17,474 nt of DNA. It comes from an uncultured euryarchaeote. Its GTDB lineage: Archaea; Thermoplasmatota; Poseidoniia; Poseidoniales; Poseidoniaceae. A model generated the notes under the pieces. That model saw only the letters and a list, made by a program, of their open reading frames with translations. It was not told the DNA's origin and did not search any database. Positions 1-16,152 of this stretch are shown in pieces. The stretch spans positions 1-17,474 of the forward strand of contig CALBRH010000050.1 of assembly GCA_937899865.1 (NCBI GenBank). The letters are read 5' to 3'. The stretch's first letter is position 1; every line of letters starts with the position of its first letter. A program made the translations under genes and the position numbers.

Positions 1-59
1 AAGGTCAACAAGGCCAGCAAGGTCAACAAGGCCAGCAAGGTCAACAAGGCCAGCAAGGT
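1..59 (+). repeat. 18-bp tandem repeat AAGGTCAACAAGGCCAGC x3 plus partial copy, encoding (GQQGQQ)n; probably continues upstream
   Basis: Exact copies at 1-18, 19-36 and 37-54, then AAGGT at 55-59. Degenerate CAA/CAG/GGT/GGC triplets continue to about 258. Confidence 0.95.
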
Positions 60-908
60 GAACAAGGCGAGCAGCAGGATAACGGGCAAGGACAACAACA
101 ACAAGGTGGAGAACAAGGTGGCCAACAAGGTCAGCAAGATCAACAAGATCAGAACGGTCAAAACCAAAATGGACAAAACGAACAACAACAAGGACAAACC
201 CAAAACGGTCAACAAGGCCAACAAGGCGAACAGACCGACCAGCAGCAAGGCCAACAGCTAGATAATCAGGATTTGAACGGTGATAATGACAACGATGGCG
301 ACGGTATTCCAGATGATGTCGACAATGATGACGACAATGACGGAATCCCTGATGACGTTGACGCCAATCCAGAAGATCATGATAATGACGGAATTAATGA
401 TGCAGAAGATAACGACGACGATGGCGACGGTATAGACGACCAGGAAGAAGTTACTGACGGCAATCAAAACACCGACATTTATGATCACGACAATGACGGA
501 ATTTCCGACAGTGTTGATTTAGACATTGATAATGATGGTATTGACAACAGAAATGATTGGGAAGACTTGAATGGCAATGGCGTAATGGATGCTGGCGAGG
601 ATCGCACACGCGACCACGACAATGACGGTTTGAATGACGCTGAAGACTTAGATGATGATAACGACAATATCCTCGATACCGAGGAGATTGGCGGCCCAAC
701 ATCTACTGGCTACCGCTATGATCACGATAATGATGGATATGTCGATATGACAGATACTGACGATGATAACGACGGTCTTTCTGACTGGTTCGAAAACAAC
801 GACGGTAATGATATGACTGGTCAATTCGACCACGATAATGATGGCATTGATGACGTAACAGATGATGACGACGATAACGACGGCATCCTCGATGTCCTAG
901 AACTTTGA
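3..908 (+). CDS. 5'-truncated protein (>301 aa): Gly/Gln/Asn-rich low-complexity region (GQQ repeats), then thrombospondin type-3-like acidic Ca-binding repeats (DHDNDG...DDDNDG); no C-terminal membrane anchor
   Basis: The frame of track ORF 273..908 is open back to base 3: GQQGQQGQQGQQGQQGQQGEQGEQQDNGQGQQQQ...GQQLDNQDLNGDNDNDGDGIPD... It therefore starts upstream of the window, not at 273. DHDNDG occurs five times (375, 483, 612, 720, 828). An EF-hand/SdrD-like loop DLNGNGVMDAGE lies at 564-599. Stop TGA at 906-908 is followed by further stops and a terminator. Confidence 0.9.
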   Translation, partial: GQQGQQGQQGQQGQQGQQGEQGEQQDNGQGQQQQGGEQGGQQGQQDQQDQNGQNQNGQNEQQQGQTQNGQQGQQGEQTDQQQGQQLDNQDLNGDNDNDGDGIPDDVDNDDDNDGIPDDVDANPEDHDNDGINDAEDNDDDGDGIDDQEEVTDGNQNTDIYDHDNDGISDSVDLDIDNDGIDNRNDWEDLNGNGVMDAGEDRTRDHDNDGLNDAEDLDDDNDNILDTEEIGGPTSTGYRYDHDNDGYVDMTDTDDDNDGLSDWFENNDGNDMTGQFDHDNDGIDDVTDDDDDNDGILDVLEL

Positions 909-929
909 GTAATAGGCTAACATCATTCC

Positions 930-947
930 ACTGATAGCAATATCAGT
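930..947 (+). other. 7-bp RNA hairpin with GNRA tetraloop (ACTGATA-GCAA-TATCAGT)
   Basis: Perfect 7-bp inverted repeat closed by GCAA, 4 nt upstream of the terminator hairpin. Confidence 0.65.
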
Positions 948-951
948 TATT

Positions 952-990
952 GGTCTCCTGAGGAGTTCGCTCCTCGGGAGACCTTTTTTT
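952..990 (+). terminator. Intrinsic-terminator-like hairpin: 14-bp stem, UUCG loop, U7 tract
   Basis: GGTCTCCTGAGGAG-TTCG-CTCCTCGGGAGACC (13 Watson-Crick pairs plus one G-U), immediately followed by TTTTTTT at 984-990, 43 nt after the upstream stop codon. Confidence 0.85.
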
Positions 991-1087
991 ATTTTGAATT
1001 CGGCATTGATACTTATTTGCTGACTTGATACTAAAGGTACTAATCGACCTATCGCGTTGATATACCATACTCCGGTGGCAAATTGTC

Positions 1088-1093
1088 GGGGTG
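1088..1093 (+). promoter_or_regulatory. Archaeal-type Shine-Dalgarno (GGGGTG) for the giant ORF
   Basis: GGGGTG lies 5 nt before ATG 1099 and 11 nt before ATG 1105. This supports a start there rather than at the track's TTG 1057. Confidence 0.6.
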
Positions 1094-1098
1094 CAGAA

Positions 1099-4000
1099 AT
1101 GCAAATGAAAAAATACCAAAGTAAAACTGAAAATCGCCGAAAATTAACACTGTCATTATTGATGGTTTTCTTAATGATATCAAGCACAACTATCTCTTTT
1201 TTGGCGACAGAATCGTCAACAGAAGAGAACACACCAAGCTTCAGTATAGCTTCTGGCGGGGAGATTCTCCATCCAGAAATTGTTCCTCAAGGCGGTGAGG
1301 TTTCTGGCCAAGGCACATTGGTTGACTTCAACCAATTACCATCTCAGCCACACCCTGCATTGTATGACATCATGTGGACCGACCCCGGTGTTTCATCTGG
1401 TGTAATAAGTGACATGTCGGCAATCTTTGCTCTTTCTCAAACATATTCTGTATTCCTTGAAGAGTCAAATAAAGAAGACCACGATAATGATGGAATTAAC
1501 GATTTGAATGATTTAGATGACGATAATGACGGAATCTATGACTTGTTAGAAAGATTTGACGGATGTTATGGAACCGATCCACTTGACCACGACAATGATG
1601 GAATCCCTGATGTTGATGATTGGGATGACGATAATGACGGGATTTTAGAAGGCCCACTAGACATTGAGGCATTGGAAGCACAAGGTCTCGACCCAATAAA
1701 TGTATCAACAGATAGATACCTCGATTCTGCAATCATTCATCCTTGGACAGATGCTCCGGTTGGACCATTATACCTTGCAGATCAGAACCCTATGGACCAT
1801 GATAACGATGGGGTAACTGACGAAGATAGTGATGGTTCAGGAGCAGATAGATACGACGAAGATGATGATAATGATGGAAGAATTGACCAATTCAAGTGGC
1901 CATGCGACTTAGATAGTGATGGTGTTCAGGATTATTTTGACAGTGATGACGATAACGACGGAATCCTTGATGTTCAAGACCGAGACCCATACAACGCATC
2001 TATTGATACAATAATGGGAGATACTGGTGAGCTAACCGATGCAGCACGAGAATGGCAATTAAACGAATATATCGCATATTCCGGCGGAGTAGACTTCCTT
2101 GCATGGGAGCAAAACCGTGTTAATGGTCCATTAGCGACAGCATCAGGATTCTATCCATTATTCGAAGATGCAACAATTACTGCACAAGGAACTCCTTCGT
2201 TTACCCAAATTTTTGATGGCGACTTGGATCAAGATGGCATACCTAATTTCCTTGACCCTGACGACGACAATGATGGTCTACCGGACAGTTCAGATACCGA
2301 TGATGACAATGATGGAATCTTGGATATGTCAGATCCTGATGATGACAATGACTTCATTGCGGACGTTTGTGTTGTTGTTGATTTCAATAATGATGGATTT
2401 AATGATTATAATTGGAGCAATGACACCGGGTCATATCAAACGCCAGGTGGCGATACCGATGGTGTAGCAGGCTTAGATTGTGAAATTGATTATGATGGCG
2501 ATTTAGATGACGACCGAATGAGACCATTCGACCAAAACTACAACGCAGTTCCCGATTGGTTAGATCTTGATATGGGTGGAACTCCAAATCCAGATAATCT
2601 AGCTAATATTGCAGTAAGTGGCGATCAAGCTAACTTTGAATATGACTTAGATGACGACCAAATTCAAAATGAAAATGATTCATTCCCATTAGATGCAAGC
2701 GCAGATGTCGCTTCATGGAACTGCCCAACGCAAGCAAACCCAATTCCAGCAAACCCAGATCCAAGATGTACTACTAGAAGAGCATCATTCTCTCAGTTTA
2801 ATGATTGGGACGGCGATGGAATCTCAAACTGGGACGACATCGATGATGATAATGATGGAATAATCGATGTGCTTGATATCGATTGGGATTGTGATTTCGA
2901 TAATGATAATGATTTACATTTGATTAATGGTGCATTATACCGTGACGATGGTCCAAATGATATCGATTCCGATATTGATGGCGATGGTTTGGAAAATAGT
3001 ATTGATTGGGATGATGACAATGATGGATTGTCTGATTTGTACGATCCAGATGATGGTAATTGTGGAGTAGTAGACTTTGACCAAACAGATGCATTCTACA
3101 GGCCGTATTACCCGGCCGATGATGGCGGAGATCTTGATGGTAGCTCAGATAGCCAAGGCTATTCTGATAACGCATCAGATTATTGGAAAATGGTATTTCA
3201 ACACAATCCCTTTGATTCTATGATGATTAATTACAATGGTTATGATGCAACAACTCAACCGGTTACCCCTGGTGAAGTGCCAGAATTTTACTGGTTCTTG
3301 TTTGCTCGGTGGAATTCTCGTAATGGTGGTAATGAGTGGGATATTGATACCGATGGAGACTCATTAATCAATGGACTTGACACCGATCAAGATGGTGACG
3401 GACTACCTAATTGGTGGGATCAAGATGAAGGTAATGACGGTATCATGGATATAAACGATCCTAAGATGGGTGGAACATTTAATCTAACAACTTGTGGATA
3501 TACTGCGGGTAATTTCGCCACAGGATTCTCCTGTGGATACACTTACGCCTTTGCTTATCAAATGCCGCTAAATGGAGTAAATGCACAACTTGGCCTGCCA
3601 TTTTCGACAAGACCAGATATAGGTTTGGACCAAGGTCAAACTGCAGGGGGGCCGTCAAATAATTGGAGTTGTACTCCAGGTGCTCAAGGAGGTTGCTATC
3701 ATTATGACTATGGTAATGATGGAACTATTGATGCTGGTATTACTTACAGTCAAATCGCTAACAGCCGAGATGCATTCACTGTTTGGATGGGATTAACACT
3801 TGGTGTGCAAGGCTGGAGTTGGAATTCAGACACCGGCCCTGTGCAAGATTTCCCAGATGAAATGGGAGCCGATATAACTGCAAATGAAGTGGATGAGGAT
3901 ATTGATGGAGACAGTTTCAACAACACTATCGATATTGATGATGATGCTGATGGAGTTTACGACTGGTTCGATATCGATGATGATAATGATGGAGTCTGGG

Positions 4001-7000
4001 ATTACTTTGACATGGACACTAATGATGATTTAGACGATGATGCTAATATTACTTTGCCACAAGGATCATCATTCTTTACAGGAACAAATTGTGATGATAA
4101 TGATGACGACGGTAATGATGCTGACGCAGATGATGACGGATTCTTCCAAGCAGTATGGGATCGAGGAGAAATGACCCAAGGTTATCAAAACCCACGTTAT
4201 TATGACGTCGACAACGATAACGACGGGGTTCCAGATGCTGAAGACTATGATGATGATAACAACGGAATTGATGATTGGGCACAAGAACTACTTCCAGGCT
4301 GCTTCACCGGTGAAGAGCAATCTCCATGGGATCATGACAATGACAATATCTCTAATTGGGCTGATGACGATTGGGATGCAGATGGTTTGACAAACGACGT
4401 CGAACTCGCAATTTCTCTCACCCAAGCATTTGATCATGATAATGACGGTCTAAGGGACGATATTGATGAAGACGATGATGAAGATGGGATGAAGGATAAG
4501 GATGAAATCTTAGTTTGGCCAATTAGATATGATAGGAACTCGACAAATCCTTGGGACCACGACGACTTTGGTGACGGTGAAGCATTAGCTAATCCATCAG
4601 ATCCATCAGTAGGTCCAGACGCGATTGACAATGATGATGATAATGATTCACGAATCGACCCTGACTTCGATCATTTAGAAAATGGTGAAATCAATGACCC
4701 CTGTTACAATGGTGCTGAATCGAGTGATTGGGATTTCGATAATGATTGTTTACTCGATGCTGATGACAAGGCTCCAACGTTTATCACACTTAATGTTCCT
4801 GATAAGCTTTGGATTGATGCCAAGACGCCTCAAAGATTCTCAGGGCATGTTGACTGGATTAACCCAATAACCAGCGCTTATGAACCAGCACCAAATATCC
4901 CAGTACAAATCAACATTGAGTGGGCAAATAATGGTACGAAGGCCATAGAGTCAATTTATGTTCCAACCAATAACTTTGGTAACTTTACTTACAATCAATA
5001 TATTTACCCTGAAATGCTTACAGTAGGCGATGTAGGTACTTACAAAGTATATGCTGAAGTCACTGAATTATTCGTCTTTAACGGCAACCGGTCTCAAGAT
5101 TATTTCCTCGGTGTTGATGCTAATTTAACAGCAAATATCGCACCAATAGGTTCTTTCAAGAGTAGTGAGCAACCATTCAAGATTGATTTCTGGGCTCACT
5201 ATACTGCAGATACAGACAGAGGAGATTATACTAAACTTATCAGTAATGTGCCGATTACTTTCACCGTGAGAGGTGGCCCATTTGGCAATATTACTAGTCC
5301 AACAACCTTTGCTGGATTGGATGGCAATGGATACCGTACAGATAACCGAGGATTTGCTTCAGTGACTTTCGTTCAAGACTTGGGAATTGCTGGAACATGG
5401 CGACAAATTCGTTTGAATGCTAGCCTTGATAATGGGCCAGGACAAATCCCGGGCGGTTATGAAGAAATAATTTGGGACAATTTAACCAAACGTCACGTTG
5501 TAGTCACCGATCCAGTTACTGGCGATCCAGTCACTGGAAACTTCACAAGTTTGTATTCTAATACTACTTTACCAGCCGGCGACTACCTAGTAACAGGATT
5601 TGTTCAGCCTGAAATTACCGATTGGAGCTACTGTTACAACTTTACCGAATACAATGAAGTTAGTATGGAATGGGAAACTCCATCTTCACCAATTTATCGT
5701 GGAGGATATGGTAGAAACATTACAAATGAAGCGGATTGTATCAGCACAGTTGATCCTAACAATAGTACAGTAAATTTGCAATGGGAAAAAGACGTAGAGT
5801 GGCCTTACTCCTTTATGCATGGCGATCAAACAGAGCCAGAAAGTGTTAGAGTCATGCATCGTATGAATATTGACGGAACAATGTATGTGACAGGAACTAA
5901 TCCAGTATATTATTTCGATAAGACAATCAATAATGGCGACGGTAGTTTCGGTAACTGGGCAACTTTATTCCATGCAGACGCATTGACTAATGCAGGTCTA
6001 AATTACAATGAGGTTTCTGCAATCAAACCATACCCAACCAATTGGGACGGCAATCCAGCAAGTTTGACCGGTGAAGCAGCACTCTTACGTCCGTTTATCG
6101 ATACTGATGGAGACAACTGGTCTATTTCATTGGTTAATGGCGGCAATACAAACTTACCTCCTTGTGGAGCAGTTGACCCAACAGACCCAAATAGTGCTGT
6201 TAGGTGTGAAATAGTTCCAGAATTGAATACTGGTGAAGGGTTTAGAGTAGTTGGTACCGTTACCAATAGAACCCTTGCTCCTTGGGTCGATGACCCAATT
6301 ACGCTTCAAATCGATATTGATGGCAATGGATTATTTATCGGACAGCAAGAAACACAGTTTACATCTAAACCAACTCAAGCCTGCTCATCTTGCGATGCAG
6401 TGTATGATTACAACTTCACTTTCTTGAGCCAGTATCCGGCTAAGACTTACGGAACGAGAGTTGATTTCACTAATTCAGCGTATTATTTTACAGGAAATAC
6501 TAGCACATTATCGCCAACAGGTGCTTATATCAACATCAGTGTTATTGGTACTACCGATTTCCAAATGACTTCCACACCGCGTTTATATCGTAATACAAGC
6601 ACTGTAATACAAGCAAAATTGGTTGATAATTCATTGCAGCCGGTAAGAAATGCACCGGTGAATTACACTTGGTCATTCGATGGCAGAACTGGAGTAAACT
6701 ATACCGATGATAACGGCTTCTTTGAAGTCCCATTCACCATTAACAGCACAGATTCATTAGGTAATTTCTCTTTAGAATTCGAATATCCAGGTTCTAATTT
6801 ACTGAAAGGCTCGTCTGTAAGCCAGTACATATGGGTAATATCGCGTACCAATATTTCAGTCACGGATATTTTGCCAAGACAAGTCCAAGAGGAATTTGGT
6901 AATTTCAGAGTAAGCGGCGATTCATGGAATTTTGTTGCTCAAATTACCGATGATGGAGCTAACGATCCAAGTATTACTCCAGTCAATCTTAATGGTGCCC

Positions 7001-9261
7001 AAGCGCCTACAGGTGGCTTGGTTGACGTTATTTTCGAGGGTACTGATTTCCAAGGTAATACCTACAGGCAATTAGTTGCAACAATCGCTCCTGAAGGCGC
7101 AGGCCAGCTAACATTGCCAGAACCAATTCCAGGTGCAGGGGACTCGCATCTATGCTATTTCGATGGCAATAATGACGAGTTCTCAGATTGGGATACCAAC
7201 CAAGATGGCGTTGTAAGCCGAGAAGAATCTGTAGGCTGTTTAAGAGCCGACATACTACCGTTAACACCGTCTAAGTTGGCTCAAGATCCAGCAGGGTTCT
7301 TGCCTAATGGATTCGGTCCAGTTAATGTTATTTTGAGATACGAAGAAAGTTTACCAAACGAAGGATGTCTTCCATTCGCCGATGATTTAGACATTAGAAC
7401 TCTTGGCGGTGCTTGGGACTCATGTTCATTTATTCCTAATAATGAGAAGTTCCGTGTATTTATGCCAAACATTGAAAATGGCTTCAACCTGATAGGAACG
7501 ACATTCATTGATGCACAAGATGAAGTAATCGTATACACCGGTGAATTTGATCCACAAACTAACCAATATGAAGACAAACCAATGATTCTAACCGGCAGAT
7601 TATACGATGAACTTGGCAATAACCTGACTAGTAGAATCGTATCTGCTCAATACACAATGAAGAATGATCCAAACAATCAAATCACTAAGTGTAATGATGT
7701 TAGAACCGATGAATTCGGAATATTCGTTATTGAATGTGATATTGAAGGAGTACAAGCGGGCCAAGCGGAAGTCAACATTATCTATTCTGCATTGGATTCA
7801 CAGAACCGTGACCAATATCGCTACAAGTCAAAGACACTACCTCTAACCTATCAAATATTCTCCAATTCGACTTTGGCAATCACCGATGTCGGACCATTCA
7901 AGTCGACTACTGATAAGTGGCTAGCACCAAATGGAACCGAATATTACCGTTTGTTCCTAAAGGAATCCTTCCACATAGATGCGATTTTGAAGCAGAGTAA
8001 CGGAGACCCAGTAGGGGACAAGTGTCTGAACATCTATTTGGACCCTGAGGAAAATGTAAGGCCTATTGCTAGAATTAGGACTAGCCAAGCATTGGACGAC
8101 CGCGGGACTATCAGTTGGTTTAGTGGCGATCCATTACAGAATCCAACTCTAAAGGGGGTTGAAACAACCGGTGGTAAGACCGAAGGTTTCCGAGTTTTAC
8201 GTGTTGCATATGAGCCAACTGAGGACTTAAGCAATTACGGCGGCTGTGCAAGAGATGCAGATAAATCATTGAATGGTTCTTTCATGGATGTTGATATTTT
8301 AGTTCGTTCCAGAGTAGATATTCAAGTCCAGCAAACATGGAGTTATCGTGGCGATAACGGCCTTTCTGAAGGAGACCCAGTCATCGGCGAAATCGCTCTG
8401 TTAAGAGATAGGTTGGATTTAGCTGTTGAGAATGAAGAAGTCTTCTTCCTTCGTCAGTATTTCTCTAATGATGGAGAATGGGTGACAGAGGGCGAGAATC
8501 GTTCAACAACCAATGAGCAAGGTATTGCAAGCTTTGAGTGGGCCTTTGATGGCCGCACTTGTGAAGGACAACCGTGTCAAGGGTTGTGGAGAATCATTGC
8601 CTATTATCCAGGTTCGACCTTCTTCGCGCCATCACAAAACAATATTTCTCACGAGATTCAGTGGCGTGAACCGATAGCAGTTAGTGCAGATACAGGCTTC
8701 TTTACACCAGCTAATACGATGGCTTTGGTAATACTGCTAATGGCATTAATCATAGGTGGTGCAGCTTACTATCAACGTACGCAAGCACGTCGACAAGTAC
8801 AGGCTCTACGCGGTATCTTAACCGACACTATGCTACAGTTGGAGGCAAGCAACGAGTTTATTGCAGCGATCTTTGATTGCTACAAGAATTTAGTACGGCA
8901 TTTCAGAAAGCATGGTTTCATGAAGAAGGTTTACGAAACAACTAGAGAGTTTGAAGCAGCGGTTAGAAAAGCCTTCGACATGGTGCCATCTGAGCAACTT
9001 GATGCATTCTTAACCATCTTTGAAGAAGCACGATATTCCGACCACACAATCGATGCAAGCCATCGAGATAGAGCAGTTGCAACATTGGGAATGATTCAAC
9101 AATCATTGAACATTGCACTTGGAGAAGGAATGTTGGTAAAGCGCTATGATGATGTGAACTTGTACAATAATCAAACCAAGGCAGGAGAGTTTGTTGCTGC
9201 TGACGGCTCGGTTAGGCAAGCAGGTATCGTCGATGGCGAAGATTCAAACTTCAAGATTTGA
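1099..9261 (+). CDS. Giant (~2720 aa) single-pass cell-surface glycoprotein: signal segment, TSP3-like acidic Ca-binding repeat region, tandem Ig-like domains, TM helix, cytoplasmic DUF4129-like domain
   Basis: Uninterrupted ORF. N-terminus MQMKKYQSKTENRRK-LTLSLLMVFLMISSTTISFLA (basic then hydrophobic). DxDxDG/DDDNDG repeats span 1477-4770. A beta-rich region 4771-8690 has recurring TDxxGxF/A motifs (PTNNFGNF, TDNRGFA, TDDNGFF, TDEFGIF, TNEQGIA). TM MALVILLMALIIGGAAYY at 8719-8772 is followed by basic QRTQARR. The helical tail CYKNLVRHFRKHG...ETTREF...FEEARYSDH...HRDRA resembles DUF4129. Family names come from motif recognition, not from a search. Confidence 0.9.
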   Translation: MQMKKYQSKTENRRKLTLSLLMVFLMISSTTISFLATESSTEENTPSFSIASGGEILHPEIVPQGGEVSGQGTLVDFNQLPSQPHPALYDIMWTDPGVSSGVISDMSAIFALSQTYSVFLEESNKEDHDNDGINDLNDLDDDNDGIYDLLERFDGCYGTDPLDHDNDGIPDVDDWDDDNDGILEGPLDIEALEAQGLDPINVSTDRYLDSAIIHPWTDAPVGPLYLADQNPMDHDNDGVTDEDSDGSGADRYDEDDDNDGRIDQFKWPCDLDSDGVQDYFDSDDDNDGILDVQDRDPYNASIDTIMGDTGELTDAAREWQLNEYIAYSGGVDFLAWEQNRVNGPLATASGFYPLFEDATITAQGTPSFTQIFDGDLDQDGIPNFLDPDDDNDGLPDSSDTDDDNDGILDMSDPDDDNDFIADVCVVVDFNNDGFNDYNWSNDTGSYQTPGGDTDGVAGLDCEIDYDGDLDDDRMRPFDQNYNAVPDWLDLDMGGTPNPDNLANIAVSGDQANFEYDLDDDQIQNENDSFPLDASADVASWNCPTQANPIPANPDPRCTTRRASFSQFNDWDGDGISNWDDIDDDNDGIIDVLDIDWDCDFDNDNDLHLINGALYRDDGPNDIDSDIDGDGLENSIDWDDDNDGLSDLYDPDDGNCGVVDFDQTDAFYRPYYPADDGGDLDGSSDSQGYSDNASDYWKMVFQHNPFDSMMINYNGYDATTQPVTPGEVPEFYWFLFARWNSRNGGNEWDIDTDGDSLINGLDTDQDGDGLPNWWDQDEGNDGIMDINDPKMGGTFNLTTCGYTAGNFATGFSCGYTYAFAYQMPLNGVNAQLGLPFSTRPDIGLDQGQTAGGPSNNWSCTPGAQGGCYHYDYGNDGTIDAGITYSQIANSRDAFTVWMGLTLGVQGWSWNSDTGPVQDFPDEMGADITANEVDEDIDGDSFNNTIDIDDDADGVYDWFDIDDDNDGVWDYFDMDTNDDLDDDANITLPQGSSFFTGTNCDDNDDDGNDADADDDGFFQAVWDRGEMTQGYQNPRYYDVDNDNDGVPDAEDYDDDNNGIDDWAQELLPGCFTGEEQSPWDHDNDNISNWADDDWDADGLTNDVELAISLTQAFDHDNDGLRDDIDEDDDEDGMKDKDEILVWPIRYDRNSTNPWDHDDFGDGEALANPSDPSVGPDAIDNDDDNDSRIDPDFDHLENGEINDPCYNGAESSDWDFDNDCLLDADDKAPTFITLNVPDKLWIDAKTPQRFSGHVDWINPITSAYEPAPNIPVQINIEWANNGTKAIESIYVPTNNFGNFTYNQYIYPEMLTVGDVGTYKVYAEVTELFVFNGNRSQDYFLGVDANLTANIAPIGSFKSSEQPFKIDFWAHYTADTDRGDYTKLISNVPITFTVRGGPFGNITSPTTFAGLDGNGYRTDNRGFASVTFVQDLGIAGTWRQIRLNASLDNGPGQIPGGYEEIIWDNLTKRHVVVTDPVTGDPVTGNFTSLYSNTTLPAGDYLVTGFVQPEITDWSYCYNFTEYNEVSMEWETPSSPIYRGGYGRNITNEADCISTVDPNNSTVNLQWEKDVEWPYSFMHGDQTEPESVRVMHRMNIDGTMYVTGTNPVYYFDKTINNGDGSFGNWATLFHADALTNAGLNYNEVSAIKPYPTNWDGNPASLTGEAALLRPFIDTDGDNWSISLVNGGNTNLPPCGAVDPTDPNSAVRCEIVPELNTGEGFRVVGTVTNRTLAPWVDDPITLQIDIDGNGLFIGQQETQFTSKPTQACSSCDAVYDYNFTFLSQYPAKTYGTRVDFTNSAYYFTGNTSTLSPTGAYINISVIGTTDFQMTSTPRLYRNTSTVIQAKLVDNSLQPVRNAPVNYTWSFDGRTGVNYTDDNGFFEVPFTINSTDSLGNFSLEFEYPGSNLLKGSSVSQYIWVISRTNISVTDILPRQVQEEFGNFRVSGDSWNFVAQITDDGANDPSITPVNLNGAQAPTGGLVDVIFEGTDFQGNTYRQLVATIAPEGAGQLTLPEPIPGAGDSHLCYFDGNNDEFSDWDTNQDGVVSREESVGCLRADILPLTPSKLAQDPAGFLPNGFGPVNVILRYEESLPNEGCLPFADDLDIRTLGGAWDSCSFIPNNEKFRVFMPNIENGFNLIGTTFIDAQDEVIVYTGEFDPQTNQYEDKPMILTGRLYDELGNNLTSRIVSAQYTMKNDPNNQITKCNDVRTDEFGIFVIECDIEGVQAGQAEVNIIYSALDSQNRDQYRYKSKTLPLTYQIFSNSTLAITDVGPFKSTTDKWLAPNGTEYYRLFLKESFHIDAILKQSNGDPVGDKCLNIYLDPEENVRPIARIRTSQALDDRGTISWFSGDPLQNPTLKGVETTGGKTEGFRVLRVAYEPTEDLSNYGGCARDADKSLNGSFMDVDILVRSRVDIQVQQTWSYRGDNGLSEGDPVIGEIALLRDRLDLAVENEEVFFLRQYFSNDGEWVTEGENRSTTNEQGIASFEWAFDGRTCEGQPCQGLWRIIAYYPGSTFFAPSQNNISHEIQWREPIAVSADTGFFTPANTMALVILLMALIIGGAAYYQRTQARRQVQALRGILTDTMLQLEASNEFIAAIFDCYKNLVRHFRKHGFMKKVYETTREFEAAVRKAFDMVPSEQLDAFLTIFEEARYSDHTIDASHRDRAVATLGMIQQSLNIALGEGMLVKRYDDVNLYNNQTKAGEFVAADGSVRQAGIVDGEDSNFKI
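1477..4770 (+). repeat. Protein-level TSP3-like repeat array (DxDxDGxxDxxDxDDDNDGxxD modules) within the giant ORF
   Basis: Dozens of DxDxDG/DDDNDG motifs with divergent synonymous codons, interrupted by non-repetitive aromatic- and Cys-containing inserts. Confidence 0.85.
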
Positions 9262-9320
9262 AATAAATTAGTCTAAATTTATTCCGAACCTTCAAGGTGT
9301 GAGTGCGCTGTGGCTTTCCT

Positions 9321-9764
9321 ATGGAAGACTGGAAAGGCCTAATCGACCAAGCTATGCAAAAGGAAACAGCTGACTTAATCGCCGCTCATGCAACCTATGG
9401 GCAGGCGGTTCGAGTGGCGCTTAGTGAAGCACAAATGTTACTTGGAGATCTTGAAGCCGCACAGATTATTGAATCAATCTATGGCGCTCTTGTAGCATAT
9501 TCTCAACAAGTAATGCTTCGTATGAAAGCAGAAGACCCTGAAGTTGGAGGCGTAGATCATGCGTTTAGAGCAGGGCAAGCATATGGTGTAAGTTGTGTTT
9601 TGAATCACTTAATCGACCAACTTACCGATGTTGTTGGCGCCACTGCACTTGGGGCATTGGATGATTTTTCCGATACGCTTCACGACGAAATAATCGTTCA
9701 AAGTAGAGCCGCTGGACTAACAGTGGAATTACTTGATGCTAAAGGCGATATTCTGTTCGAGTGA
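9321..9764 (+). CDS. Hypothetical protein, ~147 aa, predicted all-helical (alternative start GTG 9303)
   Basis: Clean ORF filling the gap between the giant gene and rpl18e. Ala/Leu/Glu/Asp-rich amphipathic pattern, no signal or TM segment, no family recognised. Confidence 0.75.
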   Translation: MEDWKGLIDQAMQKETADLIAAHATYGQAVRVALSEAQMLLGDLEAAQIIESIYGALVAYSQQVMLRMKAEDPEVGGVDHAFRAGQAYGVSCVLNHLIDQLTDVVGATALGALDDFSDTLHDEIIVQSRAAGLTVELLDAKGDILFE

Positions 9765-9786
9765 AAGGCAAAATAGGCGCGGCATT

Positions 9787-9811
9787 CGCGTATTTAGCAT
9801 TATAATACGCG
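9787..9811. promoter_or_regulatory. 8-bp inverted repeat CGCGTATT-N9-AATACGCG overlapping a TATA-like TTATAATA (9800-9807); candidate promoter/operator of the r-protein operon, or terminator of the upstream gene
   Basis: The inverted repeat is seen directly. TTATAATA is the most TATA-like 8-mer in the 108-nt intergenic gap. Confidence 0.45.
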
Positions 9812-9872
9812 TCGGTGCTTTGATAATGGGTTGGCGAGTCGCCAGCATGCTTCAAAGCATCGAGGGAGTCAA

Positions 9873-10238
9873 ATGAGTAACCCAAATAGCAAGACAAACG
9901 CTCAGTTAATTGAGGTAATCAATCAACTGAAAGCCCAGTCTCGCGAGACCGGTTCCGCTGTTTGGCGAGATGTGGCTATGCGCCTTTCTAAGAGTCGCAA
10001 AAACTGGGCCCAACCAAACCTTAGCAGAGTAAGCCGCCATGCTCCAGAGGGTGCAACAATCCTCGTGCCTGGTAAACTACTCGGCAGTGGTGAAGTTTCC
10101 AGTAACCACACGGTCGCCGCCTACAGTGTAAGTACAGGTGCTCGTGAGAAGATAGAAGCCGCTGGAGGTCGAGTAATGACATATGGCGAGCTAATGAACG
10201 AAAACCCATCAGGAAAGGGGGTTGTTATCCTTGCCTGA
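9873..10238 (+). CDS. rpl18e: 50S ribosomal protein L18e
   Basis: SKTNAQLIEVINQLK...VWRDVAMRLSKSRK...VPGKLLGSG...AAYSVSTGAREKIEAAGG matches the archaeal eL18 signature. SD-like GAGGGAG at 9862-9868 precedes ATG 9873. Confidence 0.95.
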   Translation: MSNPNSKTNAQLIEVINQLKAQSRETGSAVWRDVAMRLSKSRKNWAQPNLSRVSRHAPEGATILVPGKLLGSGEVSSNHTVAAYSVSTGAREKIEAAGGRVMTYGELMNENPSGKGVVILA

Positions 10239-10716
10239 AAAGACATATGTGTTTGACGCCAAAGGAATGATCCTTGGCCGATTGGCATCTGCAACTGCTG
10301 ACCTACTTTTGAAGGCAGCAAGAGAAGATAGAGACGATAAAGTCATTATCGTCAACGCAGAGAAAGCCATTGTCTCAGGCAGTAAGACCTCGGTATTCAA
10401 CAGATATCAAGAGAAGTACAAGTTGAATCACGCTAGAAAGGGACCGTTCTTTCCAAGAATGCCTGATATGATTCTAAAGCGTGCAGTTCGTGGTATGCTT
10501 CCTTATCAAAGTAAGAGTAGCGGCCGCAGAGCTCTACGAAACTTACGTGTTGAGATTGGCTGCCCAAGTCATCTAAGCGGCGATTTGCCAGACGGCCATG
10601 AGGCTGGCGATGATAGTAAGATTCGCAAAGGAGCGCCTGAAAGTTTTGTTTCACTTGGTGACATCAGTCATAATCTTGGTGCACCAAGCCACAGATGGAA
10701 TGGAGGTGACCAATGA
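10231..10716 (+). CDS. rpl13: 50S ribosomal protein L13 (archaeal uL13), probable TTG start
   Basis: VFDAKGMILGRLAS...VIIVNAEKAIVSG...GPFFPRMPDMILKRAVRGMLPY is the uL13 signature. There is no in-frame ATG before the conserved DA-G-ILGRLAS motif. TTG 10231 lies 9 nt after GGGGG and overlaps the rpl18e stop (TTGCCTGA); TTG 10222 is an alternative. Confidence 0.95.
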   Translation: MPEKTYVFDAKGMILGRLASATADLLLKAAREDRDDKVIIVNAEKAIVSGSKTSVFNRYQEKYKLNHARKGPFFPRMPDMILKRAVRGMLPYQSKSSGRRALRNLRVEIGCPSHLSGDLPDGHEAGDDSKIRKGAPESFVSLGDISHNLGAPSHRWNGGDQ

Positions 10717-11150
10717 TGGCTAAGAAGAAGAATAAGGCAGTAGAATCATCCGGAAAGCGTAAGACAGCAATTGCTAGAGCCAGTGTAAAGGCCGGTAAAG
10801 GCAGAGTAAGAGTCAATAGCGAACCAATCGAGATTCTTCAACCATCTTTGGCTAGAAGAAAAGCCATGGAGCCACTAATCATTGCTGATGCAATGAACAG
10901 ATTAGCAAAGGTCGATATCAACATTACAACAACCGGTGGCGGAATTATGGGTCAAACCGACGCAATAAGGACAGCGATCGCTAGAGGACTTGTTCTCTAC
11001 AATGGCGGAGCTGAAGGTCAAGACGAAGACCTTAGAGACGAATATCTAAGATTCGACAGAAGCCTATTGGTCAACGACCCAAGAAGAAAGGAACCAAAGC
11101 ACCAACTTGGACGCGGTGCTCGTCGAAAGAAACAAAAGTCCTATCGATGA
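10713..11150 (+). CDS. rps9: 30S ribosomal protein S9 (archaeal uS9)
   Basis: SGKRKTAIARA...GKGRVRVN...GGGIMGQTDAIRTAIARGL...DRSLLVNDPRRKEPK...GRGARRKKQKSYR. SD GGAGGTGA at 10702-10709; ATGA overlap with the rpl13 stop; the start could be 10713 or 10716. Confidence 0.97.
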   Translation: MMAKKKNKAVESSGKRKTAIARASVKAGKGRVRVNSEPIEILQPSLARRKAMEPLIIADAMNRLAKVDINITTTGGGIMGQTDAIRTAIARGLVLYNGGAEGQDEDLRDEYLRFDRSLLVNDPRRKEPKHQLGRGARRKKQKSYR

Positions 11151-11452: not shown

Positions 11453-11487
11453 TTTGCTTGATATGCAAGCGTAGTAAAGGACATACT

Positions 11488-14400
11488 ATGCGGCAGCATG
11501 CGGTCTCAAGCAGTGTCATTGTTGCATTACTGATATCGATGTTATTTACTCCAATAATTTTAGCAACCTCTTCAACAATTTCTACAGATACAACATGGTC
11601 TGGAAACATAGTTCTTGAAGACGATGTGATAGTTTCTCAAGGAACAACCTTGACGGTTGAACCTGGTACGACTATTGATGGTGGAGAGGGCTTTGCAATC
11701 GAGATATATGGGACATTAGTTGCTGAATCATGTCACTTTTACTCCTCTGCGAATCCAACCGCACAATCATCACATGGTCAAGGATTATGGCAAGGGATTG
11801 TAGTTAAATCTGGAGGCAGTGCAACGATTACCAATGTTGAAATCGAAAATACCAATGTAGGAGTAAAGTCTGAAGGTAATTTGGTTGTTGATAATTTGAC
11901 CGTCAGAGATTCTTATCTCGGAATCAAGAATTACGGTACTGCAAATGTCGATGTATTCTATACTGAATCCATAGATTATGAAGCGATAATGAATAGTGGT
12001 AGTCTTACAGTATCAAATGCTGAAATAACTAAATCGTCAACAGGAATTCAATCTAGCGGCTCATTATCTGTAACCGATAGTAATTTTTCTGAAGTAGGGG
12101 CGGGAATTAGCGCCAATTCAGGTGTTGTAGCAGTTAACAACCTTACCTTTGAGAAAGTTTCAGTCGGCTTTTCATCTTCTTATGGAGTTGAATTTAGTGC
12201 TTTTGATGTTTATGGTAGCGAGGTTTCACTGCTAGCCGATATGGCCAATTCAGATGACTTCACTCTTGTTTCTGCCAATGTTATTGGAGATATATTAGCA
12301 AAATCAAATACGGCGATCAATACTAAACTTTCTGAAATCTCATTTGAATCAATTCTAACAAACCAAGCTCCAGTATTGGAACAGGATTGTAGTGGAGTTT
12401 GTTTGATTGAAAATGTTTCAATCACCAATTCTTTGCGTGGAGTCTCATTAACCGGAAACGGAGACCACATTATTGCCAATTCTAGCATAAACGCAGAACA
12501 ATACGGCATTAGAGCGGCAAGTCAAGGGACTTTAACGATTAGTAATTTGTCGATAACAGCTCAGCAAAAGGGAATAATAATTCGCGATACGAATGCCCAA
12601 TTCACTGGTGAAAACACAGTCACAATGACGAGCAGCAATTCAATCGGCCTCGATATATTGGGTGGAAGTCATCAATTGAGTGAGTTAAGCGTAGTCAAAC
12701 TCTACGATAGCACAGATTCAACCTCAATGGGTTGTCAGATTTGGTATGCTGAAATAGTAATTGATTCTATTGGAACTGAGAATTTTTCAACAGGAATCAA
12801 TATGCGAGATGTAGATTTTTCAGCAGACTCGGTATCAAATATCGGTGGTAATTCAATCGGTACAGAGATTATTGACAGTGAAGCATCCATCAACATACTA
12901 ACGACAAAATTCCAAAACAATGGAATAATTCTATCTGAAAACAGCCACCTTAGCACATATCAGTGGATTGCACAGTTGCATGATCAGCCCCTGCAGGTTG
13001 GGGCAGGTTCGATAGCAAATGTGCTTGATTTCACTACAATTAATACAAATCCAAGTTACAGTGATGCATTTGGAAAAGGGGCAGTATACTATGGATACAA
13101 TTCTAATTTGGATATTTCTTCTGATATTAGCGATTATTTTGTTATGACAAATGTCAAATTTACTGATATGTCAAATAATCCCGTTGAAGCAACAATAAAT
13201 GTAAATACTTTTCAATTTACAAGTGATGAAAATGGCGAAGTTTCAATTCCACTTTTCTCTAGTGGATCGATTGTTCAAGCCAGTTTGTTAGGTACTGGAG
13301 TTAGTGAGACCCTGTATGGTGGCATTCAAGACCAGTCTATTCAAATTCCATTGATTCCTAGTGGAGATTGGATTATTTCTGGTAACCAGCATATCAGTTT
13401 GCAATCATTTGAGGCTACTCAATCTTTTACCGGAGATTTAGTAATCAATGATGATGCAATTTTACAAATCACCAATTTGGATTTAGAATTAGCATCTGGC
13501 AAGGTGATAATTCTTAATGATAATGCTCAAATTATTGGTACTAATTCTTCGATAAAGGCTGATAGCATTTTTGTCAATGATGCCAGCCTCATCGCAAGCA
13601 TGGGCTCCTCTTCTAACCTACAAATTGATAGTGATCTAGAATGGAATTGTCAAGGTCAAAAATTGTCTTCAAACCTCTTTTTCAGTCAGCAATTAAGTCT
13701 CGGCTCCGGTTGTCACTTAACTATTGAAAATGGCGTTGCTGCTGGACAATTAACAGTACCAACCGACTCATCATTCAAGATTACTTCATCTCTAGTTGTT
13801 TCAGTTATCGACAGAGGATTGCCGGTTAGCAATGCTGTTGTCGAGTTCCAAGGTGCCGATTATTACACCGATTCTTCAGGCGAAGTTAGTATTGAATCCA
13901 TAGCTCGATTTGTTGATTCACAAGATGATATTGTTGGGACCAATGAAAATGTATTGTTGAAATTAGATGATTTTAATGAATTAATTACTTGGAACACGTC
14001 CTTATCTAAATTTCATCAATTCATAGTTTCAAGTTTGGATGTTAGCGAGATATTGAGTGAAGATGTGACTTTGGAAACTATCTGGAGTCCGTATTATCTT
14101 GAAACTGATTTAACCATCCCATTGGGGCGAACGATGACTGTTGTTGACGGTGTATCGGTGAGAATTTCTGATGGCGTAGAAATTTCAGTTTTAGGTACTT
14201 TAGATGCTGAATCAGCAATCTTTTCATCAACAGGGTTTGGTGATAGATGGTCTGGATTGGTCATAGATTCTCTATATTCCAACCTTCATTTATCTGGTAC
14301 GACACTACTTGAAGCGTCCCCTGCAATCTCATATAATGGTGGTAATTTAATCGCTGATGATGTTTCTATCTCAAGGTCATCTTCATCAAGAGCACTTATT

Positions 14401-16152
14401 GAAGTGAATGAGCAAATTGGGGGCTCGTTTAGTCTGACAAACTCACAGTTAAGCGATGCGAGTAGTGTTTGCTTAGATATCATGGAATCATCCGTTGAAT
14501 TACATATTTCTAATATTGATTTTGCTCGATGCAATGGACCTTCAGTAAGGGCTGAAAATGCTTACATTGCCATGACAAATATCACTATTGGCGAAGATTC
14601 TTCCAATGGACTAACACTATCAAATGTAAATGGTAGTGTGCAAGCTATAGACGCATTAGAGTTCAATGGAGCAGGTAGCATTTTGAAATTAGATTACATC
14701 AATGATGATTTGCTAATTAGTGATGTAATTGGTACGGTTGGAGGTTCACCAGGCATTGCTGGTGCCAATAATCGGGCATTAAACCTAGAATCGATCAACT
14801 TGAATGGAGCTCCAGCAATTGACTTTGATGCATCAGCAGGCATTTTGTCAAATCTTACTCTTACTGGAGATGGCTATGGAACGGGCTTGATTAGTCATCA
14901 TGGGCGCTATTCGGATTCATTGAGAGTTTACAACATCGAATTATCAGATTATGCAGTAGGTATTGATTTGCATGCCGATGGTCCAGATACTACCTCAGCA
15001 TTTATGATTGATAACGCAGTAATTTCTTCATCTACTTCACTTTCTGTCGAAGATTACCCTGTGATTGTTAACAATGCATCGATTATTGGTGTTGTCGAAG
15101 TCAGTGGCGCGATAGTCTTGCAGTTGATTGATACACAATTAGATCAAGCAGCATCAATTTACACTGGAGCAAGCATAGATTATTACCATACAATTGAAAT
15201 GATGTCAACATATTTAGCAATAGTAAAACCAACCAATTATCATCTAGATATTGTTTATTCAAATGGCGATGAAGAACAGATACAAGTTGATGGCACTTAT
15301 GTTGAAGCAATTATCAAATTTACGACTAGATACGCTGAATCAACCAATGATGTCAGCATGCTATCGCTAAACATAATTGCTAATTCGCTCGGCCACCCAA
15401 CTGAAAGCCAATCGTTTACTATGTTCGAATTACAACAATTAGTAACTCCAGTAATTTTCACACTTAATGAAAATCAACCACCACAAATCAATACTATCTC
15501 CCCATCTTCAACTGATCAAATTATGCAAACAATTCCGTTTGAATCTATTATTGACGCAAGTGATGACTTTGATTCTGCTAGTGCTATGAGTTATCAATGG
15601 GTAATAACTAATGATGCGGGTAGCGAAGTGTATTCTTACAATTCGAATAATTACAATAACACAATCACGCTTAACTCACCTGGAAGTTATTTGTTGAAGA
15701 TTGTAGTTATAGATTCCAATCAAGCACAAACAGAAGAAATAATTCCAATAGAAGTTATCTTACTTGATTCAGATGGTGATTATCTTTCCACATGTGATGA
15801 TACAACATGGTTTGATTTGGCTGCCAGTCGTTCGTGTGGTCCTGATGTTTATGACGACGACGATGATAATGATGGCATCATTGATTCAAGAGACGATTGG
15901 CCGTTAGATGCTTGTGCTTGGCAGGATACTGATGGTGATGGTCAGCCAGATGAAGTAAACTGTCCAGAAGGAGTTGTATCGGATTTATTCGAAGACCAAG
16001 ACGACGATGGTGATGGAATACCGGATGTATTGGAAGGAACTTCAGACAAGTCCGACGGGCAATTCAATTTGGTTACTTTGATTCTATTGGTAATTGGAAT
16101 TGTAGTTGTGATTATGTTTGTAGTTCGCACCCGTAAGGGATTACAGGAGTGA
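11488..16152 (+). CDS. Large (~1554 aa) membrane-anchored surface protein: right-handed parallel beta-helix (pectin-lyase-like) segments, PKD/Ig-like domain, TSP3-like repeats, C-terminal TM
   Basis: Signal-like MRQHAVSSSVIVALLISMLFTPIILA. Beta-helix cap motifs TWSGNIVLEDDVIVSQGTTLTVEPGT...WQGIVV and SPYYLETDLTIPLGRTMTVVDGV...WSGLVI. I/S/N/G-rich coil repeats. NQPP...SYQW...PGSYLLKIVVID resembles PKD. DDWPLDACAWQDTDGDGQPD...DQDDDGDGIPD is TSP3-like. TM at 16069-16125, then RTRK. ATG 11488 with upstream AAGGA is preferred over TTG 11458. Confidence 0.88.
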   Translation: MRQHAVSSSVIVALLISMLFTPIILATSSTISTDTTWSGNIVLEDDVIVSQGTTLTVEPGTTIDGGEGFAIEIYGTLVAESCHFYSSANPTAQSSHGQGLWQGIVVKSGGSATITNVEIENTNVGVKSEGNLVVDNLTVRDSYLGIKNYGTANVDVFYTESIDYEAIMNSGSLTVSNAEITKSSTGIQSSGSLSVTDSNFSEVGAGISANSGVVAVNNLTFEKVSVGFSSSYGVEFSAFDVYGSEVSLLADMANSDDFTLVSANVIGDILAKSNTAINTKLSEISFESILTNQAPVLEQDCSGVCLIENVSITNSLRGVSLTGNGDHIIANSSINAEQYGIRAASQGTLTISNLSITAQQKGIIIRDTNAQFTGENTVTMTSSNSIGLDILGGSHQLSELSVVKLYDSTDSTSMGCQIWYAEIVIDSIGTENFSTGINMRDVDFSADSVSNIGGNSIGTEIIDSEASINILTTKFQNNGIILSENSHLSTYQWIAQLHDQPLQVGAGSIANVLDFTTINTNPSYSDAFGKGAVYYGYNSNLDISSDISDYFVMTNVKFTDMSNNPVEATINVNTFQFTSDENGEVSIPLFSSGSIVQASLLGTGVSETLYGGIQDQSIQIPLIPSGDWIISGNQHISLQSFEATQSFTGDLVINDDAILQITNLDLELASGKVIILNDNAQIIGTNSSIKADSIFVNDASLIASMGSSSNLQIDSDLEWNCQGQKLSSNLFFSQQLSLGSGCHLTIENGVAAGQLTVPTDSSFKITSSLVVSVIDRGLPVSNAVVEFQGADYYTDSSGEVSIESIARFVDSQDDIVGTNENVLLKLDDFNELITWNTSLSKFHQFIVSSLDVSEILSEDVTLETIWSPYYLETDLTIPLGRTMTVVDGVSVRISDGVEISVLGTLDAESAIFSSTGFGDRWSGLVIDSLYSNLHLSGTTLLEASPAISYNGGNLIADDVSISRSSSSRALIEVNEQIGGSFSLTNSQLSDASSVCLDIMESSVELHISNIDFARCNGPSVRAENAYIAMTNITIGEDSSNGLTLSNVNGSVQAIDALEFNGAGSILKLDYINDDLLISDVIGTVGGSPGIAGANNRALNLESINLNGAPAIDFDASAGILSNLTLTGDGYGTGLISHHGRYSDSLRVYNIELSDYAVGIDLHADGPDTTSAFMIDNAVISSSTSLSVEDYPVIVNNASIIGVVEVSGAIVLQLIDTQLDQAASIYTGASIDYYHTIEMMSTYLAIVKPTNYHLDIVYSNGDEEQIQVDGTYVEAIIKFTTRYAESTNDVSMLSLNIIANSLGHPTESQSFTMFELQQLVTPVIFTLNENQPPQINTISPSSTDQIMQTIPFESIIDASDDFDSASAMSYQWVITNDAGSEVYSYNSNNYNNTITLNSPGSYLLKIVVIDSNQAQTEEIIPIEVILLDSDGDYLSTCDDTTWFDLAASRSCGPDVYDDDDDNDGIIDSRDDWPLDACAWQDTDGDGQPDEVNCPEGVVSDLFEDQDDDGDGIPDVLEGTSDKSDGQFNLVTLILLVIGIVVVIMFVVRTRKGLQE

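Follow-up and report, generated by a model that had tools for sequence, protein, structure and literature searches.

The window analysed here is an entire contig of 17.5 kb (CALBRH010000050.1, C50) from a 2.0-Mb, 91%-complete metagenome-assembled genome (MAG) of the archaeal order Poseidoniales (Marine Group II, MGII). It encodes two adjacent surface proteins, designated A and B, that carry tandem cassettes in which a loop of the sequence DHDNDG is followed by a second loop, DDDNDG. Within a known class, the thrombospondin type 3 (TSP3) repeats, this unit stands out as a new and well-defined variant, and it is found in two paralogous core envelope proteins of Poseidoniales. The features of the two genes in the window are as follows.

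3-908, + strand: gene A, truncated at its 5' end by the contig end; encodes a secreted acidic protein
3-290, + strand: Gly-Gln-rich low-complexity spacer of A, the break-point of this and many other assemblies
375-905, + strand: C-terminal domain of A, with five cassettes of ~36 amino acids (aa) and His loops at 375, 483, 612, 720 and 828
930-990, + strand: two hairpins (7 bp, then 14 bp and GC-rich) and U7, directly after the stop codon of A
1099-9261, + strand: gene B, encoding a giant type-I membrane protein of ~2,720 aa
1477-1956, + strand: N-terminal cassette domain of B, with His loops at 1477, 1585 and 1795, collinear with modules 1-3 of A
4330-4626, + strand: second His cluster of B, with DHDNDN at 4330, DHDNDG at 4432 and DHDDFG at 4555
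8722-8772, + strand: C-terminal transmembrane (TM) helix of B, a hydrophobic stretch followed by basic residues
8878-9084, + strand: cytoplasmic DUF4129 of B (PF13559, 35 bits against a cut-off of 24.8)

The original prediction, made from the letters of the window alone, had reported eleven His-type loops, and all of them were found: five DHDNDG in A, and four DHDNDG together with DHDNDN and DHDDFG in B. At the B loops 4330 and 4432, DHDNDG is conserved in relatives. As also predicted, protein C, the third large surface protein of the window, has no His-type loop among its four DxDxDG loops. The consensus of the cassette is [aromatic/R]-DHDNDG-[I/V/L]-x-D-x-x-D-x-DDDNDG-[I/L]-x-D-x-x-E, followed by a linker of ~10 aa. 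It is free of Cys, and the residue before the His loop is frequently aromatic or Arg. Asp is invariant at positions 0, 2, 4, 8, 11, 13, 15 and 17 in the A cassettes and invariant or dominant at these positions in B. Loop spacings in A and B are 35-43 aa, and one His loop, one DDDNDG loop and one linker make up a repeat period of ~36 aa, which replaces the module of ~23 aa assumed at the outset.

A six-frame scan of the whole genome yielded ~430 DxDxDG loops in ~40 or more open reading frames (ORFs), with Thr and Ser dominating loop position 2. His occupies this position in 12 of the ~430 loops, and the exact sequence DHDNDG lies inside A and B in all cases (9/9). Among 150 unrelated TSP3-rich giants taken from a library of 1.8 billion proteins, position-2 His was present in 32 of ~10,700 loops (0.3%), and in 21 of 1,986 loops when the paired-loop context was considered. 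The enrichment of DHDNDG in A and B is beyond chance. The argument drawn earlier from codon usage also holds, as GAT/GAC, CAT/CAC and AAT/AAC are mixed between copies. Third-position identity between copies at conserved residues is 0.51, i.e., the expectation for two-fold codons at saturation. Since the synonymous sites are saturated, the copies are old and have been kept at the protein level, without recent DNA duplication or gene conversion.

The cassette arrays are conserved across the order, of which three families were covered: Poseidoniaceae (f1), Thalassarchaeaceae (f3) and a third family (f2). The DHDNDG pattern, searched at the DNA level, was detected in 35 of 41 relatives with an identical 5 + 3 + 1-2 layout, and a reversed-pattern control gave zero. 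The C-terminal domain of A is single-copy in 85/121 genomes of the order, with E values mostly of ~1e-80 to 1e-99, and the N-terminal domain of B is present in 98/121. The B domain was found in none of 165 sampled genomes from other orders of the phylum, in which A was not searched. A and B are near-universal, single-copy proteins of Poseidoniales with a fixed architecture. That the His would be conserved in orthologues was borne out in all three families: 285 of 293 anchored positions (~97%) carry it, with both CAC and CAT in use, although this count covers all loci fetched, a part of which were selected by motif, and is therefore biased somewhat upward. In cross-family alignments of the three families, the His columns are invariant except for one loop in f2. 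Where the anchored positions lack His, the changes are H→A or H→S at the fifth loop of A in several Poseidoniaceae and H→R at the third loop of B in several Thalassarchaeaceae.

Identity between families is 66-72% for the C-terminal domain of A and 71-76% for residues 140-290 of B. The corresponding values for the controls are 57-67% for L18e, 59-65% for L13, 72-81% for S9, 58-69% for DUF4129 and 34-44% for the B stalk; the cassette domains are as strongly conserved as ribosomal proteins. In both proteins, no other part is conserved as well as the cassette domain; that of B (positions 1477-1956, within a protein of ~2,720 aa) shows an identity of 0.81 across families.

Some genomes deviate from this picture. 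In G033 (genus g9, Thalassarchaeaceae, 96% complete), A, B and any DHDNDG pattern were not found, a possible joint loss of both genes in this one genome. In G037 (97% complete; L012, G037:C1:594000-611000), B is split into frames of 351 and 2,302 aa, with two TAG codons inside the N-terminal-domain match, which could reflect a pseudogene, a sequencing error or recoding. The B orthologue at L010 (G030:C23) differs from that of the window in the segment after the N-terminal cassette domain. Some genomes contain a second, weaker family (E ~1e-21) that aligns over nearly the whole C-terminal domain of A and consists of proteins of ~555 or ~1,355 aa (loci G063:C1:188682-189290, G138:C157, G102:C57, G134:C3 and G097:C5); they may be further paralogues of the cassette array. 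Genomes with B and without A were considered as evidence against a partnership, since A was missing in 4/4 genomes of g21 and g19 while all His loops of B were intact. This argument was dropped when a wider set of g21 showed A in 2 of 13 genomes (62-88% complete); where A is missing, it may have been lost at the Gly-Gln repeat during assembly or binning.

The N-terminal part of A, which lies beyond the contig end, was recovered via full-length orthologues of 578-581 aa (L001:3761-5497 and L002:3135-4880). These proteins consist of a signal peptide, three PF18884 repeats, ~200 aa of (GQ)n/(GQQ)n and a 213-aa C-terminal domain with five cassettes. The signal peptide is of the cleavable type, and there is no TM helix or other anchor; of the two states first allowed for A, the unanchored one is thus supported and the N-anchored one is not. 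In the full-length orthologue P0004, PF18884 (TSP3_bac) is matched at 42 bits against a cut-off of 25 by the three N-terminal repeats, which belong to the part of A that is missing from the window. The cassette domain itself reaches only 6.7 bits with the same profile, which is not a match. The C-terminal domain of A contains 40% Asp plus Glu and no Cys, and its sole five His residues are those of the loops. Assemblies break time and again at the (GQ)n/(GQQ)n repeat, and in dozens of MAGs the C-terminal domain of A lies at most ~1 kb from a contig end; many of the cases in which A seems to be missing are probably due to this repeat.

For B, the ATG at 1099 is the most likely start. Its N-terminal signal is followed by the cassette domain (residues 141-300), many generic TSP3-like loops, the second His cluster (residues 1092-1172), a beta-rich stalk, the TM helix (residues 2556-2572) and the cytoplasmic DUF4129 (residues 2608-2676). 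Residues 140-1230 contain 15 Cys, none of them in a CDxxxNCP pattern, and a Pfam search detected no transglutaminase core in B.

The shared cassettes can be traced to paralogy. When the C-terminal domain of A was aligned with the N-terminal domain of B using hhalign, the probability was 98.8% (E = 1.3e-16), with 52% identity over 131 columns, and the order of the modules was kept (1 to 1, 2 to 2 and 3 to 3). In BLAST searches of their own genome, A and B are reciprocal best non-self matches (116 and 110 bits vs 87 and 69 bits for the next), and after correction for composition B is the sole non-self match of A. On these alignments, the C-terminal array of A and the N-terminal array of B are collinear paralogues. 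An old duplication or exchange between neighbouring genes would be the simplest account, and paralogy of this kind suffices to explain the sharing of the module.

Adjacency of the two genes across Poseidoniales, which the original prediction had put up for testing, holds over most of the order. In all Poseidoniaceae genera sampled (~44 genomes), gene A immediately precedes B, as it does in f2 and in the Thalassarchaeaceae genera g3, g18, g11 and g4. In contrast, the genes are unlinked in the Thalassarchaeaceae genera g5, g6, g7, g8, g10 and g20, where they are located on different contigs or far apart. They are separated by 245 kb in G039, a genome made up of a single contig, and by ~218 kb in G312 of genus g21. 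The His loops of A and B are intact even where the genes are unlinked. This pattern indicates that the genes were probably adjacent in the ancestor and became separated in one part of Thalassarchaeaceae, with both genes and their His loops retained. No long open frame joining A and B was found among the 121 genomes. In one g3 genome, a secreted beta-propeller protein of 1,065 aa (PF09826, E = 1e-104, with a TSP3_bac repeat) is encoded between A and B (L008:4827-8021, G034:C6).

In the window, the hairpin region between the two genes (930-990) has a minimum free energy of -35.2 kcal/mol, with z = -5.3 against shuffles. It resembles a bacterial-style intrinsic terminator, here in an archaeal locus. 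The strong hairpin with U7 probably marks a transcript end, which would place A and B on separate transcripts.

The cassette is not confined to A and B. When the pattern DHDNDGxxDxxDxDxDxD was scanned over 185,579 species genomes, at least 120 stretches were obtained. Among the matches listed, most belong to Poseidoniales and about one fifth come from elsewhere, including Deltaproteobacteria, Patescibacteria (candidate phyla radiation, CPR), Gammaproteobacteria, Actinomycetes, Nanoarchaeia and other Thermoplasmatota as well as Bacteroidota, Kiritimatiellia, Polyangiaceae and Thermodesulfobacteriota. A Deltaproteobacteria MAG (JAADFL010000109, L024) encodes six tandem units of 35 aa, and a Patescibacteria contig (SCPX01000063, L073) also has six units, with several other Patescibacteria MAGs positive. 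Other examples are Gammaproteobacteria OZ246414 (L033) and Nanoarchaeia DASVHF010000073 (L107). The cassette also occurs as single units in Cys-containing TSP3 proteins, and one cassette protein from the protein searches is fused to a glycerophosphodiester phosphodiesterase. Not counted as independent taxa were Acidimicrobiaceae RS349, Gammaproteobacteria RS465, Legionellales ipaMAG-0636, Verrucomicrobiales ARS100 and a Salipiger MAG; the A or B sequence on these "bacterial" contigs is typical of MGII, from which they were probably misbinned.

The bacterial and archaeal arrays share with A and B the consensus, the His, the spacing, the DDDNDG second loop, the lack of Cys and a tandem period of 29-36 aa. 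They differ in their unrelated hosts and taxa and in lacking the linkers ERFDGCYGT and DWFExNDGxxxTGQF, and no two-gene arrangement was seen among them. The module, which the original prediction took to define the two-protein system, is not private to the pair, as it also turns up in many bacterial phyla, other archaea and human TSP-2. A scattering of DHDNDG among unrelated TSP3 proteins had been named at the outset as an argument against the prediction, and it holds in part. Because the same cassette consensus is found across phyla, the His travels with the cassette and not with the A/B pair. In databases, relatives of the cassette domain are annotated with PF18884 and PF02412 and bear the name "thrombospondin type 3 repeat-containing protein". 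Asp-rich proteins dominated the results of a protein homologue search with the C-terminal domain of A, among which there was a single true orthologue. Several culicid (mosquito) proteins with an MFS domain (PF12832; P0180, P0203, P0205 and P0246) gave short matches to the cassette domain, with 58-83% identity over 10-34% of the query, which are probably stretches of low complexity rich in Asp, His and Asn.

Among proteins of known structure, a profile search of the PDB with the C-terminal domain of A retrieved COMP (3FBY) at E = 3e-6. The thrombospondin/COMP type 3 (T3) repeats (PF02412; 3FBY, 1YO8/2RHP, and 1UX6 for TSP-1) have tandem DxDxDGxxDxxD loops and a period of ~36 aa in common with A and B. 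In TSP-2 (1YO8/2RHP), the unit (A)DHDRDG-QGDACDP-DDDNDG-VPD aligns residue for residue with the archaeal [Y]DHDNDG-xxDxxDx-DDDNDG-[I]xD, His included. Yet, important differences are present. The vertebrate T3 repeats are stapled by disulfides, whereas the C-terminal domain of A has no Cys, and the conserved T3 cysteine pairs are absent from this domain and from residues 140-1230 of B. Every first loop of A and B is of the His type, while only one unit in the aligned TSP-2 stretches has His. An aromatic residue or Arg precedes the loop in A and B, which also lack the C-terminal lectin-like domain of the T3 proteins. A Pfam search of the whole A and B proteins gave no TSP_3 match.

The other known systems resemble A and B in single parts. 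Bacterial TSP3 proteins (PF18884; OmpA-family and gliding-motility-associated) are matched by the N-terminal third of full-length A only, and generic PF18884 members have T or S at loop position 2, with His in 0.3%. B shares with TgpA-like DUF4129 proteins (PF13559) a TM helix followed by cytoplasmic DUF4129, but its extracellular part consists of calcium loops and a beta-rich stalk. In the dockerin-cohesin system, a duplicated Ca2+-binding Asp/Asn loop pair serves as the docking module of secreted proteins, which is how the model first proposed for A and B would work. Neither dockerin nor cohesin has a sequence or Pfam match in A or B. In addition, the partner of dockerin is a beta-sandwich, whereas the partner proposed here is a paralogous loop array. 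DHDNDG is not mentioned in the literature searched.

The DxDxDG loops of thrombospondin and COMP bind Ca2+ via Asp side chains and fold only when loaded. With little more than even confidence, we lean towards a reading in which A and B are core envelope proteins with paralogous, Cys-free Ca-loop arrays that are shared by duplication or exchange, the His is structural and the partner is fixed and endogenous. In seawater (~10 mM Ca2+), each cassette would bind several Ca2+ through its Asp residues, by analogy with thrombospondin/COMP. The loaded cassettes would stiffen into rigid, highly acidic rods at the C-terminus of A and at the membrane-distal tip of B. The position-2 His would probably be an intrinsic structural residue of this cassette subtype, acting as a hydrogen-bond or charge partner of neighbouring carboxylates. 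It would probably pack on the preceding aromatic residue or Arg, substituting for the missing disulfides, and would probably not be a ligand of a second metal. Since the His goes along with the cassette across phyla, with Arg, Ala or Ser in its place now and then, it is read as structural and not as a recognition code or an obligate metal ligand. Conservation at the level of ribosomal proteins points away from variable external ligands and towards an endogenous partner or lattice that stays constant. This partner or lattice in the envelope could be formed by A with B, by self-association or with a common third component.

Several points weigh against this interpretation. Ca2+ binding is inferred from the motif, and the role given to the His from substitution patterns and the TSP analogy only. 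A structural His would not obviously need conservation close to 100% at every unit, given that T, S, N or F stand at this position in most TSP3 loops. The Pfam TSP_3 profile (PF02412) stays below threshold, with 15 bits (E = 0.021) against 25 for the N-terminal domain of B and no hit for the C-terminal domain of A. The shared extreme composition helps the alignment of A with B, although E is still 3e-4 after composition correction. AlphaFold2 models made without ions from alignments of 11 sequences had predicted local distance difference test (pLDDT) values of 48 for the A C-terminal and 40 for the B N-terminal domain, which are too poor to place the His or to support a fold search. Prediction of a complex of both domains with 4 Ca gave a score of 0.00 with the fold of the partner itself uncertain, and is evidence neither for nor against contact. 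Moreover, ribosomal-level conservation together with adjacency over most of the order would fit a specific A-B contact equally well.

Such a contact is the core of an alternative that we consider unlikely, in which A docks through its C-terminal cassettes onto the tip cassettes of B in a heterotypic, Ca2+-dependent manner, with the His at the interface, forming a coat or tether. It would account for the adjacency of the genes in all sampled Poseidoniaceae genera, in f2 and in the four Thalassarchaeaceae genera, and for the retention of both genes with intact His loops where they are unlinked. It also agrees with the conservation of both cassette domains, that of B being located at the tip farthest from the anchor, and with the 96%-complete genome G033, which is without both genes. 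However, the cassette is not pair-specific, and paralogy alone accounts for its sharing. The genes are unlinked in six Thalassarchaeaceae genera and in g21 (G312), with 245 kb between them in G039, and a strong hairpin with U7 stands between them in the window. Since both are near-universal, their co-occurrence carries little information, and two polyanionic domains would require bridging cations to associate. A more elaborate form, in which the Gly-Gln spacer lets A polymerise and the five cassettes of A dock onto those at the B tip to build an outer layer replacing an S-layer, the His setting specificity or metal/pH control, seems quite improbable. The two-protein system as such is a reasonable, unproven hypothesis.

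The possibility that A and B are adhesins, two of many, whose arrays bind particles, anionic polysaccharides or other cells, possibly via Ca2+ bridges, also appears rather improbable. Rinke et al. 2019 (PMC6461757) found thrombospondin genes to be widespread in Poseidoniales and inferred a role in cell adhesion. Dozens of further surface proteins with TSP3 loops are encoded in the genome, the spacer of A is long and flexible, and the cassettes of B are held out on a long stalk, all in keeping with adhesion. Domains that bind variable ligands usually evolve fast, though, whereas the cassette domains are far better conserved between families (66-76%) than the B stalk (34-44%), and both genes are single-copy with a fixed architecture across the order. 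We regard as very unlikely that the His and neighbouring Asp residues form second-metal sites (Zn2+, Ni2+, Cu2+ or Fe) or a pH switch, serving as a metal store, sensor or assembly trigger. This idea draws on the presence of exactly one His per cassette, with no other His in the C-terminal domain of A, and on the rarity of position-2 His in generic TSP3 loops (0.3-1%) compared with its ~97% conservation here. Against it, a Thalassarchaeaceae clade tolerates H→R, and Poseidoniaceae tolerate H→A or H→S. Arg cannot ligate metal, and a polar or charge role accounts for these substitutions better than that of an obligate metal ligand. One His per 36 aa cannot form a site alone, and the solved, Ca-loaded signature domain of TSP-2 contains the homologous DHDRDG unit, for which no second metal is known to have been described. 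As to a pH switch, the pH of the open ocean is stable and far from the pKa of free His.

The remainder of the window contains the following features.

9303-11150, between B and C: a conserved small ORF, then the ribosomal genes L18e-L13-S9
11458-16152, + strand: protein C, the third large anchored surface protein, with 4 generic DxDxDG loops, none of the His type; used as an internal control

The small ORF directly downstream of B (9303-9764) encodes 153 aa without a Pfam family and shows 52-58% identity across families. It is co-directional with B in the genus of the window but on the opposite strand in f2 and f3 (L006, L007, L008 and L013 were compared), indicating that a small local inversion occurred. 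B, the 153-aa ORF and L18e-L13-S9 remain together across the order, and B holds its position beside the ribosomal operon throughout. Protein C (1,564 aa) has a long repetitive region resembling a beta-helix, a PKD-like domain (PF22352, sub-threshold) and a C-terminal TM anchor.

RNA libraries from several marine studies yielded contigs over both A and B. In four metatranscriptome runs, the k-mer depth over A was hundreds to thousands vs tens for B and the ribosomal genes, and in X14, X15 and X16 (window positions 1-1122) the depth of the A contig was 10-1000 times that of B and the ribosomal operon. These depths are summed over organisms and cannot rank genes; they show the presence of both in RNA only. 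A may be very highly expressed, which contig depth summed in this way cannot show.

No archaea are more abundant in the surface ocean than Poseidoniales, which have never been cultured. As single-copy, highly conserved proteins, A and B are good candidates for fixed envelope components, and they would be useful as antigens, as markers for fluorescence in situ hybridization (FISH) or proteomics, and as landmarks in cryo-electron tomography (cryo-ET). Beyond this order, the DHDNDG/DDDNDG unit is a recognisable Cys-free subtype of the thrombospondin calcium repeat that recurs from CPR bacteria to human TSP-2, and the role of its His would inform how these calcium "wires" fold without disulfides.

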